Shown here: positions 1,715 to 21,404 of the stretch, piece after piece
Layout: each line of letters begins with the position of its first letter
How positions within the stretch are numbered: position 1 is the stretch's first letter
Source of the DNA: Escherichia coli
GTDB lineage: Bacteria > Pseudomonadota > Gammaproteobacteria > Enterobacterales > Enterobacteriaceae
Assembly: GCF_044324875.1 (NCBI RefSeq)
Contig: NZ_CP172187.1
DNA length: 64,000 bases
Strand: one strand, 5' to 3'
Program-made: the position numbers and the translations under genes
The notes under the pieces: model-generated
The model's database searches: none
Told to the model about the DNA's origin: nothing
Seen by the model: only the letters and a program-made list of their open reading frames with translations

Positions 1715-1984
1715 TATTCTAATAACTGAATCCACACACAGTCAAATGTCATTATTGTGACTAAAAAACGCTCAATTCTCTGAGGGTGTGGCTGTATGCC
1801 TGCTGTGGACTGCTGTGTCCAGCTTATCCACAGCATTTTGCGCACGGTTCTGTGAATAAAATACCTGGTTACCCAGGCCGTGCCGGCACGTTAACCGGGC
1901 TGCATCCAATGCAAGTGTGTCGCTGTCGCCGGCATCCTCACCAGGTCACTCAGCAGTCAGGGAGAAAAATGGCGGATGAAGTAT

Positions 1985-2340
1985 GACGGAGACGGTCGGG
2001 CAAGTGCCCGTTTCTTTTCCGACAAAGGATGTCGCCGTGCTCCTCTTTTTACTGCGCCGGCTGACGCGGCGCGGCATAAACGCTGCCTGTGGTCAGTGTC
2101 CCGCGTCCGGCGGGCACGGGACGGGCGCTTTTACCGCTCCCGGCTGGCGTCGGTGACAGTGTACGCCAGCCCGTCGCCCTTTTCTGATGAACGCCCTTCA
2201 AGCCGCTTTCGCGGCATAGCCTTGCCGTCAAAAAGACGACGGCTGCGGTATTCCACGGTCGGCCTGACCCGTTACCGGACGCGGTGAACAGCCCACAGGC
2301 AGCGGGGAACGGGCACCACAGGGGGGCCCTCCCGGTGCTC
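1985..2340. repeat. Leading-region repeat family A, copy 1 (~350 bp, GC-rich, hairpin-rich); candidate Frpo/ssi-like single-strand promoter
   Basis: Near-identical to 3290-3650 (shown by near-identical translations of ORFs 1976..2287 and 3248..3592 and by direct reading); ends immediately upstream of the ATG at 2343. Confidence 0.8.
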
Positions 2341-2342
2341 CT

Positions 2343-3284
2343 GTGAGGAGAATTCCCATGCCAAACTGGTGCTCAAATCGTATGTATTTTTCTGGTGAAC
2401 CAGCACAGATCGCTGAGATTAAACGACTGGCCAGCGGTGCAGTCACACCGCTTTATCGCCGCGCCACAGATGAAGGTATTCAGCTGTTTCTGGCCGGTAG
2501 TGCCGGACTTCTGCAGACCACTGAAGATGTGCGGTTTGAACCATGCCCCGGACTGACGGCTGCCGGACGTGGTGTTGTATCGCCGGAGAATATCGCGTTC
2601 ACCCGCTGGCTGACACACCTGCAGAACGGTGTGCTACTGGATGAAAAAAACTGCCTGATGCTGCATGAACTCTGGCTGCAGAGTGGTACTGGCCAGCGTC
2701 GCTGGGAAGGATTACCGGATGAGGTCAGGGAAAGCATCACCGTGCATTTCACCGCCAAAAGAGGTAACTGGTGTGGCTTCTGGAGTAACGAGGATGTATC
2801 GGTGTGGTGGAACCGTCTGTGTGACAATGTACTGCCGGAAAAAACCATGCCGTTTGACCTGCTGACGGTTCTGCCCACCCGCCTGGATGTTGAAGTGAAT
2901 GGCTTTAACGGTGGTGTTCTGAACGGTGTTCCTTCTGCGTATCACTGGTATACGGAACAGTATGGCGTGAAGTGGCCTGTGGGGTATGAGGTGAATATCA
3001 GCAGTCAGGGAGACAACTTCATTCAGGTTGATTTCGACACGCCGTGGTGTCAGCCGGAAAGCGACGTTATTGCAGAATTAAGCCGCCGTTTCAGTTGCAC
3101 ACTGGAGCACTGGTATGCCGAGCAGGGCTGCAATTTCTGTGGCTGGCAGCGATATGAGCGTGGAGAGCTTGTTGATGTCCTGTGGGGGGAATTGGAATGG
3201 TCTTCCCCGACAGATGACGATGAGCTGCCGGAAGTCACCGGACCTGCGTGGATTGTCGACAAGGTGGCGCATTACGGTGGATGA
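2343..3284 (+). CDS. Hypothetical leading-region protein (313 aa; Cys/Trp-rich), function unknown
   Basis: Long ORF immediately downstream of repeat A copy 1; alternative start ATG at 2358 (MPNWCS...). No motif I can assign. Confidence 0.55.
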   Translation: MRRIPMPNWCSNRMYFSGEPAQIAEIKRLASGAVTPLYRRATDEGIQLFLAGSAGLLQTTEDVRFEPCPGLTAAGRGVVSPENIAFTRWLTHLQNGVLLDEKNCLMLHELWLQSGTGQRRWEGLPDEVRESITVHFTAKRGNWCGFWSNEDVSVWWNRLCDNVLPEKTMPFDLLTVLPTRLDVEVNGFNGGVLNGVPSAYHWYTEQYGVKWPVGYEVNISSQGDNFIQVDFDTPWCQPESDVIAELSRRFSCTLEHWYAEQGCNFCGWQRYERGELVDVLWGELEWSSPTDDDELPEVTGPAWIVDKVAHYGG

Positions 3285-3289
3285 ATTCT

Positions 3290-3650
3290 GACGGAGACGG
3301 GCGGGCAACCGCCCGTTTCTTTTCCGACAAAGGATGTCGCCGTGCTCCTCTTTTTACTGCGCCGGCTGACGCGGCGCGGCATAAACGCTGCCTGTGGTCA
3401 GTGTCCCGCGTCCGGCGGGCACGGGACGGGCGCTTTTACCGCTCCCGGCTGGCACCGGTGACAGTGTACGCCAGCCCGTCGCCCTTTTCTGATGAACGCC
3501 CTTCAAGCCGCTTTCGCGGCATAGCCTTGCCGTCAAAAAGACGACGGCTGCGGTATTCCACGGTCGGCCTGACCCGTTACCGGACGCGGTGAACAGCCCA
3601 CAGGCAGCGGGGAACGGGCACCACAGGGGTGCCCTCCCGGTGCCTTCTGT
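3290..3650. repeat. Leading-region repeat family A, copy 2
   Basis: Direct repeat of 1985-2340 with a few substitutions; ends at the RBS (AAGGAGG) of the methyltransferase gene at 3668. Confidence 0.8.
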
Positions 3651-3667
3651 AAGAGAAGGAGGCTTTT

Positions 3668-4351
3668 ATGTCCCGTTTTATCCTGGGTGACTGCGTGCGA
3701 GTTATGGCCACGTTTCCGGACAATGCTGTCGATTTCATCCTCACCGACCCGCCGTATCTCGTCGGTTTCCGTGACCGTTCCGGGCGCACCATTGCCGGTG
3801 ACGTTAACGATGACTGGTTGCAACCTGCCAGCAATGAGATGTACCGCGTACTCAAAAAAGACGCTCTGTTGGTCAGCTTCTACGGCTGGAACCGTATTGA
3901 CCGCTTTATGGCGGCCTGGAAACGCGCCGGATTCAGCGTGGCAGGGCACCTCGTGTTCACCAAAAACTACACATCCAAATCTGCGTATGTCGCGTACCGC
4001 CACGAATGCGCCTACATCCTGGCAAAAGGCCGTCCACGTCTGCCACAAAACCCGCTGCCGGACGTGCTGGGCTGGAAATATTCGGGCAATCGTCATCACC
4101 CGACGGAAAAGCCTGTTACCAGCCTGCAACCGCTGATTGAGAGCTTCACACACCCGAACGCAATTGTGCTGGACCCGTTTGCAGGCAGCGGCTCAACCTG
4201 CGTTGCCGCCCTCCAGTCCGGACGCCGGTATATCGGTATCGAGCTGCTTGAGCAGTATCACCGTGCCGGACAGCAACGACTGGCTGCCGTTCAACGGGCC
4301 ATGCAGCAGGGGGCCGCGAATGATGACTGGTTTATGCCGGAGGCTGCGTAA
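3668..4351 (+). CDS. Orphan DNA methyltransferase, beta-class (N6-adenine/N4-cytosine type; DPPY motif precedes the SAM-binding FAGSGST motif)
   Basis: 227-aa ORF with TDPPYLVGF near the N-terminus and DPFAGSGSTCVAA near the C-terminus; no adjacent restriction endonuclease gene. Confidence 0.85.
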   Translation: MSRFILGDCVRVMATFPDNAVDFILTDPPYLVGFRDRSGRTIAGDVNDDWLQPASNEMYRVLKKDALLVSFYGWNRIDRFMAAWKRAGFSVAGHLVFTKNYTSKSAYVAYRHECAYILAKGRPRLPQNPLPDVLGWKYSGNRHHPTEKPVTSLQPLIESFTHPNAIVLDPFAGSGSTCVAALQSGRRYIGIELLEQYHRAGQQRLAAVQRAMQQGAANDDWFMPEAA

Positions 4352-4573
4352 ATGAACTATGCCGGACACGAAAAACTTCGCGCCGAAGTGGCGGAGGTGG
4401 CCAACACCATGTGTGACCTTCGGGCCAGGCTGAACGATATGGAGCATCGCTGTCGTTTTGATTCCGATGTGCTTGTTGAACGCCTGACACGCCAGACGCT
4501 GTATCGCGCCAATCGCCTGTTTATGGAGGCGTATACCGAAATTCTTGAACTGGATGCGTGCTTCAAAGATTAA
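4352..4573 (+). CDS. Hypothetical small protein (73 aa)
   Basis: ATG abuts the methyltransferase stop; same strand as all leading-region genes. Confidence 0.5.
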   Translation: MNYAGHEKLRAEVAEVANTMCDLRARLNDMEHRCRFDSDVLVERLTRQTLYRANRLFMEAYTEILELDACFKD

Positions 4574-5608: not shown

Positions 5609-5749
5609 TGACACTGGCGGGGTAAATCCCCGCCTTTTTCCTGCCGGTCCCCGGACAGAGCACAAAGGAAGTCGCCGCCGGCTCCGCTTTACCCGGCCAT
5701 GCGGGGCATGGCCTTGTGGATTTTCAGTTATGTGGCCTCAGCGTCGTGT

Positions 5750-5990
5750 GCGGGCTGTGCCGTGCCTCCATCGTAGCCGGGCTTCTGCGGGCGGGTTGCA
5801 AGGTAAGGTGAACCGCTGCGGTCACCCGGTCCCTCCTTCCCGTCTGCCGTGATTTTCCGGTCGTTCACCCGCTCAGATTTCGCGGTCTCACCCTCCAACT
5901 CCCGCCAGCCGTGTGCGTCAGGCTGCGGCTTCCCTTGCGCCCTTGCAACCCTGCAGGCCCGGCAAAGATGGAGGCACGGCACCGCCCGGT
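5750..5990. other. Long-range inverted repeat in a GC-rich 415-bp intergenic region upstream of klcA; candidate single-strand hairpin promoter/ssi element
   Basis: GCCGTGCCTCCATC (about 5763) pairs with GATGGAGGCACGGC (about 5968) about 190 nt apart, with further local palindromes; no ORF of note. Confidence 0.4.
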
Positions 5991-6024
5991 GTCGCGGAAT
6001 ATGTGAACAACGGAGGAAAACATC

Positions 6025-6450
6025 ATGCAATATGCGAAACCTGTCACTCTGAATGTTGAAGAGTGCGACCGTCTGTTTTTTCTGCCTTACCTGTTTGGCC
6101 AGGATTTTCTGTATGCCGAGGCATCTGTGTACGCGCTGGCGAAAAAAATGATGCCGGAATATGACGGCGGATTCTGGCACTTCATCCGCCTGCCGGACGG
6201 TGGCGGTTACATGATGCCGGATGGCGACCGTTTTCATCTGGTCAACGGTGAAAACTGGTTTGACCGTACGGTCAGCGCCGATGCCGCAGGCATCATTGTG
6301 ACTTCCCTTGTGATTAACCGTCAGTTGTGGCTGTACCACGACAGCGGTGATGCAGGACTGACTCACCTGTACAGGATGCGCGATGCGCAGTTGTGGAGCC
6401 ACATCGAATTTCACCCCGAATGCAATGCGATTTACGCGGCACTGGACTGA
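6025..6450 (+). CDS. klcA: KlcA/ArdB-family anti-restriction protein
   Basis: 141 aa with family hallmarks FLPYLFG...[16 protein letters not shown]...[11 protein letters not shown], matching my recollection of KlcA/YfjX-type proteins. Confidence 0.8.
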
Positions 6451-7107: not shown

Positions 7108-7295
7108 TACAGGGGCAGGCGGTGGAGGCCGCCTGTCAGCCCGCGCGAAAACCCCTGGCAGGCTGACGCCTGCCGGAAGGGAAGCGGGCCACGCTGGCGC
7201 GTCGCCCGTTACCCTTCCCGTCTGTGATGTGTCTGACTCAGGAGTGTTTCTTTCTTATGTTGCGGAACTGTTCCTGATGTTGTTGTTGTTCCTTT

Positions 7296-7895
7296 ATCTG
7301 CTGCTCTGATTCTGACTACTGCAGTGTTGTTCTGTCTGCCGGGCGCACCTTCGGCTCCCGGCTGCCTGGCGGCATCCGGTCGTCAGGCCCGACTCCGACA
7401 GGCAGCTGCTGGCGCACCTGCCAGTCTCCGCCGAACCCGCTGGCGCGGCTTCGGGCTGCCGCTACGGTCCGATGCGTGAAAACCCCGGGCTTGCAGCGAC
7501 CGTTCTGGTCGCGCCGCCTCTGTCGCGCCGTGGCCTGCGCTCCAGGCATCCCGGCAAAAAGACGCCGGGATGTAAGGCGCAACGCCGTTTCGCAAACCGC
7601 GCTTCACGTCGTTGCTGCGGGTCCCTGCTCATTGCCTGCCGGGTGCCACACACCCGTATGAGTCCCTGTCGCCGGGGGCATAGACAGCCACAACCTGCCG
7701 CACTGACTGTCCAGGGTAAATGAACAGCCCACAAAATTTTTTACCCAAAACCCGGTAAAAAATTTTGCGTTCTGCCCAGGACAGGTGCGTCAGGCCGTGG
7801 CAGTGATGCCCCTTGCGGCGAAGGTTCTCAAACGGGTGAAGTTCATACCACAGGGAATACAGCAGCAGGTTCCCGCGAAACGTCAAAACCGCGGC
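7296..7895. repeat. Leading-region repeat family B, copy 1 (~600 bp, GC-rich); candidate Frpo/ssi-like single-strand promoter
   Basis: Shares ...CTGATTCTGACTACTGCAGTGTTGTTCTGTCTGCCGGGCGCACCTTCGGCTCCCGGCTGCC... through ...CGCGGCTCCCGAAACTCAAC with copies at 10651-11280 and 18720-19340. Confidence 0.8.
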
Positions 7896-8148
7896 TCCCG
7901 AAACTCAACGGGTGATGTTCTTTAAAAATCAGGATTTATTTCAGGCTCCGGCAATACGCATTTATGTGTTCTGTCAGTCATCCGGCTGGCAGGTAATGAG
8001 AACGCAGGAACAGAAGGAGGAAAACACCGGAGAACGTCAGACGCAGATATGAAAAAAGCAGGCCGGGGAGGACCTGCTTAATCCACACCGCAAAAACTGT
8101 TCGAGCAGTTTCTGCGGTTCCATTCAACAGTCATAAGGAGTTTCATTT

Positions 8149-10402: not shown

Positions 10403-10581
10403 TGACACAGGGCTGGCGGGAGGATAAATGCCCGTCTGTCCGCGCCGGGAAAAGACCGCGCGCCGGTGGCGCTGAAAGGGGCCGCGCTCACGCGCCGCCC
10501 CTTTCATTACGCGGACGTTCTGATGGGGGCTTCTGTCTTTTCAGACCTGTCATTTGTCTGTTACTGATGATGTTGTTGTTC

Positions 10582-10647
10582 CTGCTACTGCTACTGCTAC
10601 TGCTACTGCTACTGCTACTGCTACTGCTACTGCTACTGCTACTGCTC
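10582..10647. repeat. Hexanucleotide tandem repeat (CTGCTA)x11
   Basis: Eleven perfect units counted directly at the 5' edge of repeat B copy 2; the equivalent position in copies 1 and 3 is not expanded. Confidence 0.9.
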
Positions 10648-10650
10648 TTC

Positions 10651-11280
10651 TTTTTCCTGCTGCTCTGATTCTGACTACTGCAGTGTTGTTCTGTCTGCCG
10701 GGCGCACCTTCGGCTCCCGGCTGCCTGGCGGCATCCGGTCGTCAGGCCCGACTCCGACAGGCAGCTGCTGGCGCACCTGCCAGTCTCCGCCGAACCCGCT
10801 GGCGCGGTTTCGGGCTGCCGCTACGGTCCGATGCGTGAAAACCCGGCTTGCAGCGACCGTTCCGGTCGCGCCGCCCCTGTCGCGCCGTGACCTGCGCTCC
10901 AGGCATCCCGGCAAAAAGACGCCGGGATGTAAGGCGCAACGCCGTTTCGCAAACCGCGCTTCACGTCGTTGCGGCGGGTCCCTGCCCGTTGTTGTGTCCG
11001 GTGCCATTCACCTGTTTAAGCCCCTGTCGCCGGGGGCTGATACAGCCACAACCTGCCGCACTGACTGTCCAGGGTAAATGAACAGCCCACAAAATTTTTT
11101 ACCCAAAACCCGGTAAAAAATTTTGCGTTCTGCCCAGGACAGGTGCGTCAGGCCGTGGCAGTGATGCCCCATGCGGCGAAGGTTCTCAAACAGGTGATGG
11201 TGAATACCGGAGGGAACAAAGAGCAGGTCCCCGCAAAACGTCAAAACCGCGGCTCCCGAAACTCAACAGATGATGGGGGC
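10651..11280. repeat. Leading-region repeat family B, copy 2, directly upstream of ssb
   Basis: Direct sequence identity with copies 1 and 3; the 3' end ...CGAAACTCAACAGATGATGGGGGCTGAAAAC is shared exactly with copy 3. Confidence 0.8.
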
Positions 11281-13862: not shown

Positions 13863-13888
13863 GTTTATCCCCAATAAGCTAGCAATGG

Positions 13889-13926
13889 AGAGCCGTATGC
13901 ACTGAAAGGTGCACGTACGGTTCGGA
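13889..13926 (+). ncRNA. Group II intron domain V (catalytic hairpin)
   Basis: Matches the conserved domain V consensus as I recall it (GAGCCGUAUGC...GCACGUACGGUUC), about 80 nt from the 3' splice site. Confidence 0.7.
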
Positions 13927-14008
13927 GGGGGGGTAACGGTGATCTAACTCAAGATAAGCAGGACATATTCGCCATTTATCTTGAAAGACCACACGTACCC
14001 TACCCTAC

Positions 14009-14849: not shown

Positions 14850-16807
14850 ATGTCAGTTACAGAGTCTAAGACAAAAACGGAGCGTAAATCCAGCCGTAAA
14901 CCTGCAAAAACGCAGGAAACTGCACTGTCTGCCCTGCTGGCGCAGACGGAGGAAGTGAGCGTGCCGCTGGATTCACTGATTAAATCACCGCTGAATGTGC
15001 GCACGGTGCCGTATTCTGCGGAGTCCGTCAGTGAACTGGCTGATTCCATTAAGGGAGTCGGCCTGCTGCAGAATCTGGTTGTTCATGCCCTGCCAGGTGA
15101 CCGTTACGGTGTCGCCGCAGGTGGTCGCCGACTGGCAGCACTCAACATGCTGGCAGAGCGTGACATCATTCAGGCTGACTGGCCTGTCCGCGTGAAAATT
15201 ATTCCGCAGGAGCTGGCGACGGCTGCATCGATGACCGAGAACGGTCATCGTCGGGATATGCACCCTGCCGAACAGATTGCCGGATTCCGCGCAATGGCGC
15301 AGGAAGGCAAAACACCTGCGCAAATCGGTGATTTGCTGGGCTATTCACCCCGCCATGTCCAGCGAATGCTGAAACTGGCTGACCTTGCGCCTGTCATCCT
15401 CGATGCGCTGGCAGAAGACCGCATCACCACCGAACACTGTCAGGCGCTGGCGCTGGAGAACGACACCGCGCGTCAGGTGCAGGTGTTTGAAGCCGCTGCC
15501 AGTCAGGATGGGGTGGAAAACCGGATGTGCGGGTTATCCGCAACCTGATTACGGAAAGTGAAGTGGCGGTGAAGGACAACACTAAATTTCGCTTTGTGGG
15601 GGCTGATGCTTTCTCGCCTGACGAACTGCGCACCGATTTGTTCAGCGATGACGGGGACGGTTATGTCGACCGCGTGGCGCTCGATGCCGCCCTGCTGGAA
15701 AAACTCCAGGTTGTTGCAGAGTCCCTTCGGGAAGCAGAAGGCTGGGAATGGTGCGCCGGGCGCATGGAGCCAGTCGGTGAGTGCCGTGAGGATGCCGGAA
15801 CATACCGCTGTCTGCCGGAGCCGGAAGCGGTGCTGACGGAGGCGGAAGAAGAACGCCTGAACGAACTGATGACGCGTTACGACGCGCTGGAAAACCAGTG
15901 TGAGGAATCCGACCTGCTGGAAGCAGAAATGAAGCTGATGCGCTGCATGGCGAAGGTCAGAGCGTGGACGCCGGAGATACGTGCCGGAAGCGGTGTGGTG
16001 GTGTCCTGGCGTTATGGCAACGTATGTGTCCAGCGTGGTGTGCAGTTGCGCAGTGAAGATGACGCGACTGACGACGCTGACCGCACGGAACAGGTGCAGG
16101 AGAAAGCGTCAGTGGAGGAAATCAGTCTGCCACTGCTGACGAAAATGTCTTCCGAACGCACGCTGGCAGTCCAGGCGGCACTGATGCAGCAACCGGACAA
16201 ATCCCTGACACTGCTGGCATGGACGCTCTGCCTGAATGTGTTTGGCAGCGGAGCGTACAGTAAACCAGCACAAATCAGCCTGGAATGTAAACATTATTCG
16301 CTGACCAGCGATGCGCCGTCAGGGAAGGAAGGTGCCGCATTCATGGCGCTGATGGCAGAAAAAGCCCGTCTTGCGGCCCTGTTACCGGAGGGATGGTCAC
16401 GGGACATGACGACATTCCTTTCACTCAGTCAGGAGGTGCTGTTATCCCTGCTCAGTTTCTGCACCGCGTGCAGCATCCACGGCGTTCAGACCCGCGAGTG
16501 TGGTCACACGTCACGCAGCCCGCTGGACACGCTGGAGAGCGCCATCGGTTTTCACATGCGCGACTGGTGGCAGCCGACAAAAGCAAACTTCTTCGGACAC
16601 CTGAAAAAGCCGCAGATTATCGCAGCCCTGAATGAGGCAGGACTGTCCGGTGCCGCACGGGACGCGGAGAAGATGAAGAAAGGCGATGCGGCTGAACATG
16701 CAGAGTTCCATATGAAAGACAACCGCTGGGTGCCTGGCTGGATGTGTGCACCACGTCCACAGACGGATACCACTGAACGCACTGATAACCTGGCTGATGC
16801 CGCCTGA
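14850..16807 (+). CDS. ParB-like nuclease-domain protein, apparently split by a frameshift into 14850..15548 and 15527..16807
   Basis: N-terminal part has ParB/Srx-like motifs (LQNLVVHALPGDRYGVAAGGRRLAALN, HTH-like region); the second ORF continues in another frame with a 22-nt overlap. Combined length (~650 aa) is that of intact homologues as I recall them. Confidence 0.6.
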
Positions 16808-18719: not shown

Positions 18720-19340
18720 TCCTGCTCTGATTCTGACTACTGCAGTGTTGTCCTGTCTGCCGGCGCACCTTCGGCTCCCGGCTGCCTGGCGGCATCCGGT
18801 CGTCAGGCCCGACTCCGACAGGCAGCTGCTGGCGCACCTGCCAGTCTCCGCCGAACCCGCTGGCGCGGTTTCGGGCTGTCGCTACGGTCCGATGCGTGAA
18901 AACCCCGGGCTTGCAGCGACCGTTCCGGTCGCGCCGCCTCTGTCGCGCCGTGGCCTGCGCTCCTGGCATCCCGGCAAAAAGACGCCGGGATGTAAGGCGC
19001 AACGCCGTTTCGCAAACCGCGCTTCACGTCGTTGCTGCGGGTCCCTGCCCGTTGTTGTGTCCGGTGCCATTCACCTGTTTAAGCCCCTGTCGCCGGGGGC
19101 TGATACAGCCACAACCTGCCGCACTGACTGTCCAGGGTAAATGAACAGCCCACAAAATTTTTTACCCAAAACCCGGTAAAAAATTTTGCGTTCTGCCCAG
19201 GACAGGTGCGTCAGGCCGTGGCAGTGATGCCCCATGCGGCGAAGGTTCTCAAACAGGTGATGGTGAATACCGGAGGGAACAAAGAGCAGGTCCCCGCAAA
19301 ACGTCAAAACCGCGGCTCCCGAAACTCAACAGATGATGGG
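18720..19340. repeat. Leading-region repeat family B, copy 3
   Basis: Direct identity with copies 1 and 2; ends about 30 nt upstream of the ATG at 19371. Confidence 0.8.
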
Positions 19341-19370
19341 GGCTGAAAACCAGAGAGAGGAGAAAGCTGG

Positions 19371-20641: not shown

Positions 20642-20894
20642 TATTATCATTTTTCGGCATTGCTGTGTCGTCTGATATACCTCAATTTCATCGACCGGCT
20701 TTCCGGTTGTCTGTAAATATTGTGCCCGCGAAAAATGGTCTGGCAGGAGGCTGCGCAGTTACCGGGTATATATAAGATGGGTTCCCGCTTCGCGGGGCTT
20801 CGGCCAGTCAGTATTGTCACTCATATGATATTTTTGTGTGTGGCCTTCCATGCCGCTTTTGCGGCATAACCGGTATCTGACAATGTCTGTAAGA

Positions 20895-21404
20895 TTAATT
20901 GTTCTGCACGCTGTTAATTTCCGGAAGTGATTTCTTCGTGGCCGGAAGCCGGATACCTTTACTGCTTTTTATCCCGGTATAAATCCGGTAAACCTCTGAT
21001 GCGTAGGCAAGACGTCTCTGGTTCTGGCGTTCGGATTTCCTGAATCCTGCATTGTATGCACCAACGGCCTCCCAGGTGACGCCCCATTTTTTAAATGCTA
21101 TTGCCAGATAATAAGCACCGGTATAAATGTTCATGCAGGGATCTGTTGTCAGATGTTCTGGCTTAATTCCGTAGCGGGCCAGTTCGTTAAAATGCTGGGA
21201 ATCTACCTGCATCAGTCCGCTGCCATATCCCGTTACCGGATTAATACCGATGGCATTAACCCGGTAACGGGATTCTTTCCATGATATTGCTCTCAGTAAA
21301 TCAGGATCTATTTTGTAATCCCGGCCTGCAAGATCAAAGCAATCAGTGGCATGGCAGATCTCATTTATAAACATCAGGCAGATGGCTAACATCCATTTTT
21401 TCAT
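20895..21404 (-). CDS. Gene X / orf169-type lytic transglycosylase
   Basis: ORF-track frame 20895..21497; internal start [12 protein letters not shown] gives a 169-aa signal-peptide protein with a lytic transglycosylase-like region; adjacent to oriT as in F-like plasmids. Confidence 0.8.

Follow-up and report, generated by a model that had tools for sequence, protein, structure and literature searches.

Several hairpin elements that lie in leading regions of conjugative plasmids have been described as promoters of single-stranded DNA (ssDNA). Class 1 comprises Frpo/ssiD of F and ssi1-3 of ColIb-P9 (Masai and Arai 1997, Bates et al. 1999). More recently, a scan of the pESBL leading region yielded six hairpins, and a start site was assigned to each of them by rapid amplification of cDNA ends (5' RACE) on transconjugant RNA (Wen et al., NAR 2025, PMC12672017). 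According to that text, promoter boxes had been predicted in the hairpins, and the mapped starts "matched their in silico predictions"; the element upstream of M.EcoGIX, whose sequence is not related to that of Frpo/ssi, was designated a "class 3" ssDNA promoter and is induced early in transconjugants. Classes 2 and 3 are also reported as conserved in F, with early induction of the corresponding operons. Class-2 promoters lie upstream of ardA and klcA in pESBL and, as ssp2, upstream of yfgB in F. The names ssp1, ssp2 and ssp3 for the three classes come from a preprint (10.64898/2026.01.09.698686), in which ssp3 serves as an ssDNA promoter "of equivalent strength" to ssp2 and is reported to lack roadblock activity. 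The stretch analysed here (the window) comprises 64,000 nucleotides of contig NZ_CP172187.1 from Escherichia coli assembly GCF_044324875.1, and it contains two near-identical repeats, family A, of which copy A1 precedes a DUF1281 gene and copy A2 an orphan DNA methyltransferase gene. By its sequence, family A is the already published class-3 ssDNA promoter of enterobacterial conjugative plasmids. That both repeats are class-3 promoters, which would be active while the transferred strand is still single-stranded and switched off in the duplex, is given a probability of roughly 0.8.

The assignment follows from homology to the pESBL and F element defined by Wen et al. Both copies are about 95-98% identical to the DNA directly upstream of pESBL M.EcoGIX and of the F methyltransferase, they align end to end with pESBL NC_018659.1 54391-54781 and F NC_002483.1 at 95% mean column identity, and the family profile scores each of them at E ~1e-101. 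Repeat search, MAFFT alignment and direct base count describe family A as one two-copy direct repeat, gap-free and with a constant offset of 1305 bp, in which 12 of the 371 nt are mismatched (1971-2341 versus 3276-3646, 96.8% identity), and this length and identity make a chance origin impossible. An earlier note, made from the sequence alone, had placed near-identical direct repeats at 1985-2340 and 3290-3650, each ending at the start of a + strand gene. Both statements hold, with coordinates that are right to within ~15 nt on the left: the range 1985-2340 differs from its partner at the 1305-bp offset by 8 mismatches in 356 nt (97.8% identity), and repeat identity drops away left of ~1970 and right of ~2338. 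The end of A1 is followed by a ribosome-binding site (RBS), GAGGAG at 2345-2350, and by ATG 2358 of the DUF1281 gene (ORF313 of the earlier note), while the end of A2 is followed by the RBS AAGGAGG at 3656-3662 and ATG 3668 of the methyltransferase gene; the start codons thus stand ~20 nt beyond the end of each copy, with the same distance logic for both. Each copy contains a 30-nt inverted repeat with arms 164 nt apart, and the structured core (2082-2303 versus 3387-3608) shows just 2 differences, at 2149 and 2150.

The placement of the two copies also corresponds to that of class 3. The traJ 5' untranslated region (UTR) and FinP at 22.3 kb, CopA, two sok RNAs and F-type tra antisense RNAs (Rfam) identify the window as an IncF plasmid with its tra operon on the + strand, where the tra genes run from 22.3 kb; Rfam covariance models at gathering score gave ten hits in the window and none inside 1900-3700. 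The leading region, below ~21 kb, contains ssb, psiB, psiA, an antirestriction gene and a methylase, all on the + strand, together with a BLAST match to F ssiE at 20712-20900 (98% identity). Transcription of the leading genes runs towards oriT, which makes the window's minus strand the transferred strand (T-strand); its 5' end would be the first part to reach the recipient, starting at oriT (near 21 kb), and transfer would run from high to low coordinates. A1 and A2 each lie directly 5' of a + strand gene in this region, with the T-strand as template.

In addition to homology and placement, both copies fold strongly as single strands. The earlier note had regarded poor folding as ssDNA as evidence against its proposal, and the opposite was found: the minus strand of A1 folds at -103.3 kcal/mol (z -6.7) and that of A2 at -106.8 kcal/mol (z -6.6), and 0 of 100 shuffles were as stable. 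When the scan of Wen et al. was repeated over 1-22 kb (300-nt windows, DNA parameters, threshold -75 kcal/mol), the T-strand windows of A1 and A2 reached -89.0 and -90.5 kcal/mol against a background of -48.8 +/- 14.2, and the same scan flagged a class-2 element (-86.0) and three Frpo copies (-94 to -98). The sole other leading-region stretch past the threshold, marginally, is 15081-15510 on the minus strand (-75 to -77 kcal/mol), ~1 kb beyond a match to a group II intron catalytic domain at 13888-14008 within the leading region (Rfam), where an ltrA reverse transcriptase is annotated in related plasmids.

Sequence variation for a comparative analysis was drawn from methyltransferase homologues of 72-88% identity and their contigs. 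An element 73-79% identical to family A occupies the same place in five sources (Salmonella, a Klebsiella-type contig, Edwardsiella, Serratia and Pectobacterium), and the class-3 hairpin was not found upstream of the homologues L011 (72%), L012 (88%) and L007 (Erwinia). For a T-strand alignment of nine sequences, down to 73% identity, RNAalifold predicts 94 pairs, and 95.7% of the alignment cells at these positions are paired. Changes on both sides affect 26 of these pairs, compared with 11.5 +/- 2.2 in column shuffles and just 2-6 after sliding the partners by 1-3 columns; this strong covariation supports a branched hairpin on the transferred strand. Double-sided changes occur in 10 of the 24 pairs of the three helices of the long stem P1, in helix 10, within the side arm P5/P4, and in the leader hairpin P0 next to the RBS (Table 1).

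Activity of A1 is suggested by its near-identity to A2, whose orthologue was studied experimentally. The view of the earlier note that the repeats drive the distal leading-region genes thus stands for the methyltransferase copy, through its published orthologue, and for the DUF1281 gene it is carried over from near-identity. The element as such is widespread, being present in at least 5000 PLSDB plasmids at >=90% identity and in 2833 of 5426 complete E. coli genomes; the PLSDB figures refer to the best 5000 records, all at >=90% identity (blastn, tblastn), and the more diverged homologues were reached through protein homologues and their contigs. The junction between repeat and DUF1281 is much rarer, with 165 of the 5426 complete E. 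coli genomes (~3%) and 194 of the best 5000 PLSDB records, or ~4% of element carriers, and it occurs on IncF and I-complex plasmids, including the I-complex plasmid p135-2 (NZ_CP080262.1). F and pESBL have one class-3 element, before the methyltransferase, and ~100 nt of unrelated sequence before DUF1281. A1 opens with the final codons of a DUF1281 gene (ATGGCGGATGA...). The 16-nt sequence TCAGCAGTCAGGGAGA has exactly two occurrences (0 expected), at 1950-1965 just left of A1 and, in a different frame, at 2998-3013 inside DUF1281, so that it looks like the scar of the rearrangement that made A1. On these two traces, A1 probably arose by duplication and deletion of a DUF1281-plus-promoter unit.

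Such an origin raises the question of whether A1 is an inert by-product of recent duplication or recombination that has no role in DUF1281 expression. The last codons of DUF1281 and the internal 16-nt match do point to a rearrangement, and F and pESBL manage without A1; an inert copy is nevertheless judged rather unlikely, as the structured core has kept all but two of the bases of A2, the RBS and start codon follow at the same distance, and the junction recurs in the numerous genomes and the two plasmid groups given above. Furthermore, a Salmonella contig (AALQTE010000027.1, locus L010) has, at 59-350 of the locus and immediately upstream of DUF1281, a class-3 copy that a profile search detected (E 7.6e-51). 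This diverged copy lacks the P4 hairpin and has kept its stems through compensatory changes; two small open reading frames (ORFs) separate it from the class-3 copy of the methyltransferase. Class-3 control of DUF1281 would therefore not be unique to the lineage of the window.

A different function was also considered, in which the hairpins serve mainly as ssi signals for complementary-strand synthesis, through primosome or primase or through RNA-polymerase transcripts used as primers, with gene expression being secondary. Such a role may coexist with that of a promoter. It would suit a stable branched hairpin on the transferred strand, and transcripts of Frpo/ssiD are known from the literature to prime DNA synthesis in vitro, and transcription-dependent early conversion has been described downstream of ssp1a and ssp1b in vivo. 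For class 3 (ssp3), the accessible texts report neither priming nor early conversion, and the published evidence there is that an mRNA start was mapped and that the operon downstream was induced (PMC12672017). The conserved leader hairpin, RBS and start codon at the end of each copy fit expression. The ssiE match offers a further comparison: its segment at 20842-20871 of the window (GGTTATGCCCGCAAAAGCGGCATGGAAGG) resembles the invariant class-3 P3 block (GGCTATGCCGCGAAAGCGGCTTGAAGG) weakly (nhmmer E 0.013), a similarity at chance level that may be fortuitous. Overall, a primary role in priming seems improbable.

The relation to known ssi elements was also examined by sequence comparison. Five reference Frpo/ssi sequences (including F ssiD and ColIb-P9 ssi1-3) and the candidate Frpo sequences of Samuel et al. 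2024 (Supplementary Table 2) gave no BLAST match at 1971-2341 or 3276-3646, whereas the same search matched family B, the class-2 element X and ssiE; the comparison with the ColIb-P9 elements that the earlier note had proposed thus detected no similarity. Family B consists of three class-1 Frpo/ssiD copies (7573-7906, 10930-11279 and 18993-19342), 80-87% identical to F ssiD, and F itself has two such copies. Tandem repeats of 12 nt of the CTGCTA type lie at 10558-10680, just upstream of the second Frpo copy, with a related stretch at 7268-7315. As the earlier note had stated, family A differs in sequence from family B, with local BLAST giving only matches of 13-39 nt (E >=0.07), and the proposal of a second single-strand promoter class distinct from family B agrees with the published class 3 as well as with fold and covariation. 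Homology between the hairpins of family A and those of family B or the class-2 element X was rejected, the collinear matches being short and likewise at E >=0.07.

Since covariation alone is blind to strand, the structure could also belong to a + strand mRNA as a long, folded 5' leader acting in regulation or stabilisation, with the mRNA transcribed from an ordinary upstream promoter, and the P0 hairpin beside the RBS is indeed very likely part of the mRNA. As an account of the whole structure this is very improbable: between 1700 and 3800 the double-strand promoter scan found no ordinary sigma-70 promoter on the + strand, the upstream edge carries a terminator-like hairpin with a T-run, and the published starts fit predicted boxes within the hairpins (PMC12672017). 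The wobble pairs, 52 G.T versus 11 A.C, also favour the T-strand, with a count that is somewhat biased as the structure was predicted on the T-strand alignment. Free of this bias is the energy of the consensus fold, which amounts to -63.8 kcal/mol on the T-strand and -50.7 kcal/mol on the + strand (DNA parameters), that is, ~13 kcal/mol better on the minus strand.

That the repeats encode a small protein is hardly tenable: open frames of 103 and 114 codons do run over them on the + strand (1976-2287 and 3248-3592), and equivalent "hypothetical protein" ORFs are annotated in the RefSeq records of p135-2, F and pESBL (the three records inspected), but the indels among homologues (single bases in P1, 2-3 nt, an 11-nt deletion) are not multiples of three, gene calls are absent there from L005, L006 and L008, three of the five diverged loci, and compensatory substitution pairs are a signature of nucleic-acid structure. 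Given these frame-breaking indels, the annotated ORFs over the hairpins in the three records are very probably not genes, which should serve as a warning for annotation.

Within the preferred reading of family A as a class-3 promoter, the positions of the promoter boxes were deduced from conservation and geometry (Table 1). The putative -10 mimic GACACT lies on the 3' arm of P1 and conforms to nAnACT in all ten sequences, with its A and T mismatched in every one of them and the two bases between them paired. The two -10 bases that sigma-70 flips out of the helix are A-11 and T-7. The candidate -35, TTGACC, is a composite that faces the continuous template GGTCAG at 2264-2269 (GGTCA(G/A) in the family); all of its residues are invariant, and it fits the -35 consensus at 5 of 6 positions. 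As the template side has no unpaired base between P2 and P3, coaxial stacking of these two helices is inferred. The spacer would measure 15 nt on the template side and 18-19 nt on the non-template side, the latter including a 4-nt GCCC bulge. Starts are predicted 7 nt downstream of the putative -10, near + strand A2297 and A3602 (the latter corresponding to pESBL NC_018659.1 position 54717, plus or minus 3), and would give leaders of 61 and 66 nt that contain P0.

Several observations weigh against this model or against parts of it. The two strands of the spacer are unequal in length, the proposed -10 fits its consensus at just 3 of 6 positions, and a 79-nt side arm interrupts the proposed -35. 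The model has no place for TAnAnT, another conserved -10-like hexamer, which lies in the P4 loop, and A1 as a single sequence folds slightly better on the + strand (-89.6 versus -87.6 kcal/mol).

The folded T-strand was searched strictly for sigma-70 sites (spacer 15-19, A2 and T6 obligatory, >=8 of 12 matches), and none was detected. Other candidate boxes were considered and rejected. An invariant TTGAAG stands 29-32 nt upstream of the P4-loop hexamer TAnAnT; as a promoter, this pair fails as the closed 12-nt loop cannot supply template and non-template strands, the spacer to TTGAAG is too long for the hexamer to act as -10, and the diverged Salmonella copy upstream of DUF1281 lacks P4 with its loop. 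At the base of P1, GGGACA-18 nt-TATGCC was rejected as well, for F has CCTGCC there and the diverged homologues also differ.

Upstream of the main hairpin, the terminator-like hairpin of A2 (3302-3325, directly after the DUF1281 stop codon) was placed by the 1305-bp offset and was not flagged by the scan that found its A1 equivalent. The P6 motif pattern occurs exactly twice in the window (0 expected). Family A and the class-2 element X share 20-25 nt of this upstream motif, a related version of which lies near 5662-5690 in the latter. On the T-strand the motif reads GGAGC...GCGAC(A/T)TCCTTTG and separates the terminator-like hairpin from the main one; it is common to the otherwise unrelated class-2 and class-3 cassettes and is also present in "Frpo' 4" and "Frpo* 3" of Samuel et al. 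The Erwinia locus L007 keeps the motif (2224-2258 and 4455-4476) without the class-3 hairpin.

Table 1. Features of the family A locus in the window; promoter boxes are putative.
Feature	Position	Equivalent in A2	Strand	Basis or remark
Copy A1, class-3 ssDNA-promoter cassette	1971..2341		-	Repeat, homology, fold; would direct + strand transcription into the DUF1281 gene
Copy A2, class-3 ssDNA-promoter cassette	3276..3646		-	Orthologue of the M.EcoGIX promoter (ssp3 in F); methyltransferase operon
DUF1281 gene	2358..3284		+	Protein 93% identical to the pESBL DUF1281 protein
Orphan DNA methyltransferase gene, 227 aa, M.EcoGIX orthologue	3668..4351		+	93% identical to the pESBL enzyme; NCBIfam NF010253, 489 bits
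Terminator-like hairpin and T-run, upstream edge of cassette	1997..2020		+	Scan: CGGGCAAGTGCCCG then TTTCTTTTCC
P6, small hairpin of conserved motif AGAGGAGCACGGCGACATCCTTT	2024..2046	3329-3351	-	Largely invariant in homologues
P1 3' arm, putative non-template mimic	2082..2111	3387-3416	-	Inverted repeat with 2275-2304
Putative -10 hexamer GACACT	2095-2100	3400-3405	-	A-11 at 2099/3404, T-7 at 2095/3400
Side arm P5/P4	2123..2196	3428-3501	-	Covariation in helix 10
P4-loop TA(A/C)A(C/A)T, invariant -10-like hexamer	2158-2163	3463-3468	-	Stem-loop junction
P3 hairpin, most conserved block	2198..2267	3503-3572	-	Junction columns invariant
Putative composite -35 TTGACC	TTGA 2198-2201, CC 2119-2120	TTGA 3503-3506, CC 3424-3425	-	
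P1 5' arm, putative promoter template strand	2274..2303	3579-3608	-	Inverted repeat and predicted pairing
Leader hairpin P0, between predicted start and RBS	2306..2332	3611-3637	+	4 of 10 pairs changed on both sides

Taken in sequence, these parts suggest how the cassette might work. Upon entry, the single-stranded 370-nt cassette would fold into a branched hairpin with the long stem P1/P2 and two side arms, of which P3 is almost invariant and P5/P4 variable and covarying. By analogy with Frpo, the stem would mimic a sigma-70 promoter, with the 5' arm as template, continuous with the gene, and the 3' arm as non-template strand; the -10 mimic would offer its A-11 and T-7 unpaired, and the -35 would be assembled across the helix junction if the base of P3 and the top of P2 stack. 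Host RNA polymerase could then start at the predicted sites and transcribe the short structured leader and subsequently the downstream gene, while the terminator-like hairpin might block read-through at the upstream edge. Complementary-strand synthesis would convert the region into the duplex CTGACC-15 nt-TGAACA, and as TGAACA lacks both critical -10 bases, the promoter would be switched off, leaving a brief burst of expression on plasmid entry. A2 would in this way drive the anti-restriction methyltransferase, as published, and A1 would put DUF1281 under the same control.

A broader interpretation is offered tentatively, with odds somewhat short of even for the whole of it. In that interpretation, terminator, upstream motif, ssDNA promoter, leader hairpin and RBS form a portable cassette, which confers an entry burst on the gene before which it is copied; DUF1281 would be an establishment or anti-defence gene in carriers of A1, the -35 would be formed by helix stacking across a three-way junction, and the flipped-out -10 bases would be offered as conserved mismatches. 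As to DUF1281 itself, the protein had 0 NCBIfam family matches and resembles only Api92 (PDB 2IJR, "hypothetical protein api92", E 9e-49).

When a resistance plasmid enters a cell, expression in the first minutes is set by single-strand promoters, which thereby help to decide whether the plasmid escapes restriction. The contribution here is modest, since no new kind of element is involved: class 3 was described in 2025, and what is added is the second copy before DUF1281 and a comparative model of the boxes. Covariation, strand asymmetry and conserved mismatches provide comparative evidence for class-3 promoter mimicry and name specific bases. Moreover, the cassette can be duplicated, and the second copy before DUF1281 in ~3% of complete E. 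coli genomes nominates DUF1281 as an early-expressed establishment factor.

Compared with class 1, family A shares the big T-strand hairpin upstream of leading genes and the mimicry of a sigma-70 promoter only while single-stranded; it differs in that class 1 has an A/T-rich apical region and no sequence similarity, whereas the stem of class 3 is branched and bears two side arms. For class 2, a homologue is present in the window itself at 5661-5995 (minus strand), 79% identical to "Frpo' 4" of Samuel et al. 2024, with a 32-nt inverted repeat whose arms are 174 nt apart, directly upstream of the antirestriction gene at 6025-6450; its 3' arm can be read as TTGCAA, a GCCC bulge in the spacer, and TACGAT. 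The two classes resemble each other in the order of terminator-like hairpin, shared upstream motif, long imperfect hairpin and RBS, and, in our reading, in a -10 mimic on the 3' arm near the base of the stem and in the GCCC bulge of the spacer. Their hairpin sequences are unrelated, and ssp2 is described as a replication roadblock, while ssp3 is reported without such activity in the preprint (10.64898/2026.01.09.698686). The closest system is class 3 (ssp3) of pESBL and F, with which A2 shares its sequence, its site upstream of the orthologous methyltransferase, its orientation relative to oriT and its high folding tendency; the plasmid of the window differs in its extra copy A1 before DUF1281, a second copy that the accessible texts of the literature found do not mention.

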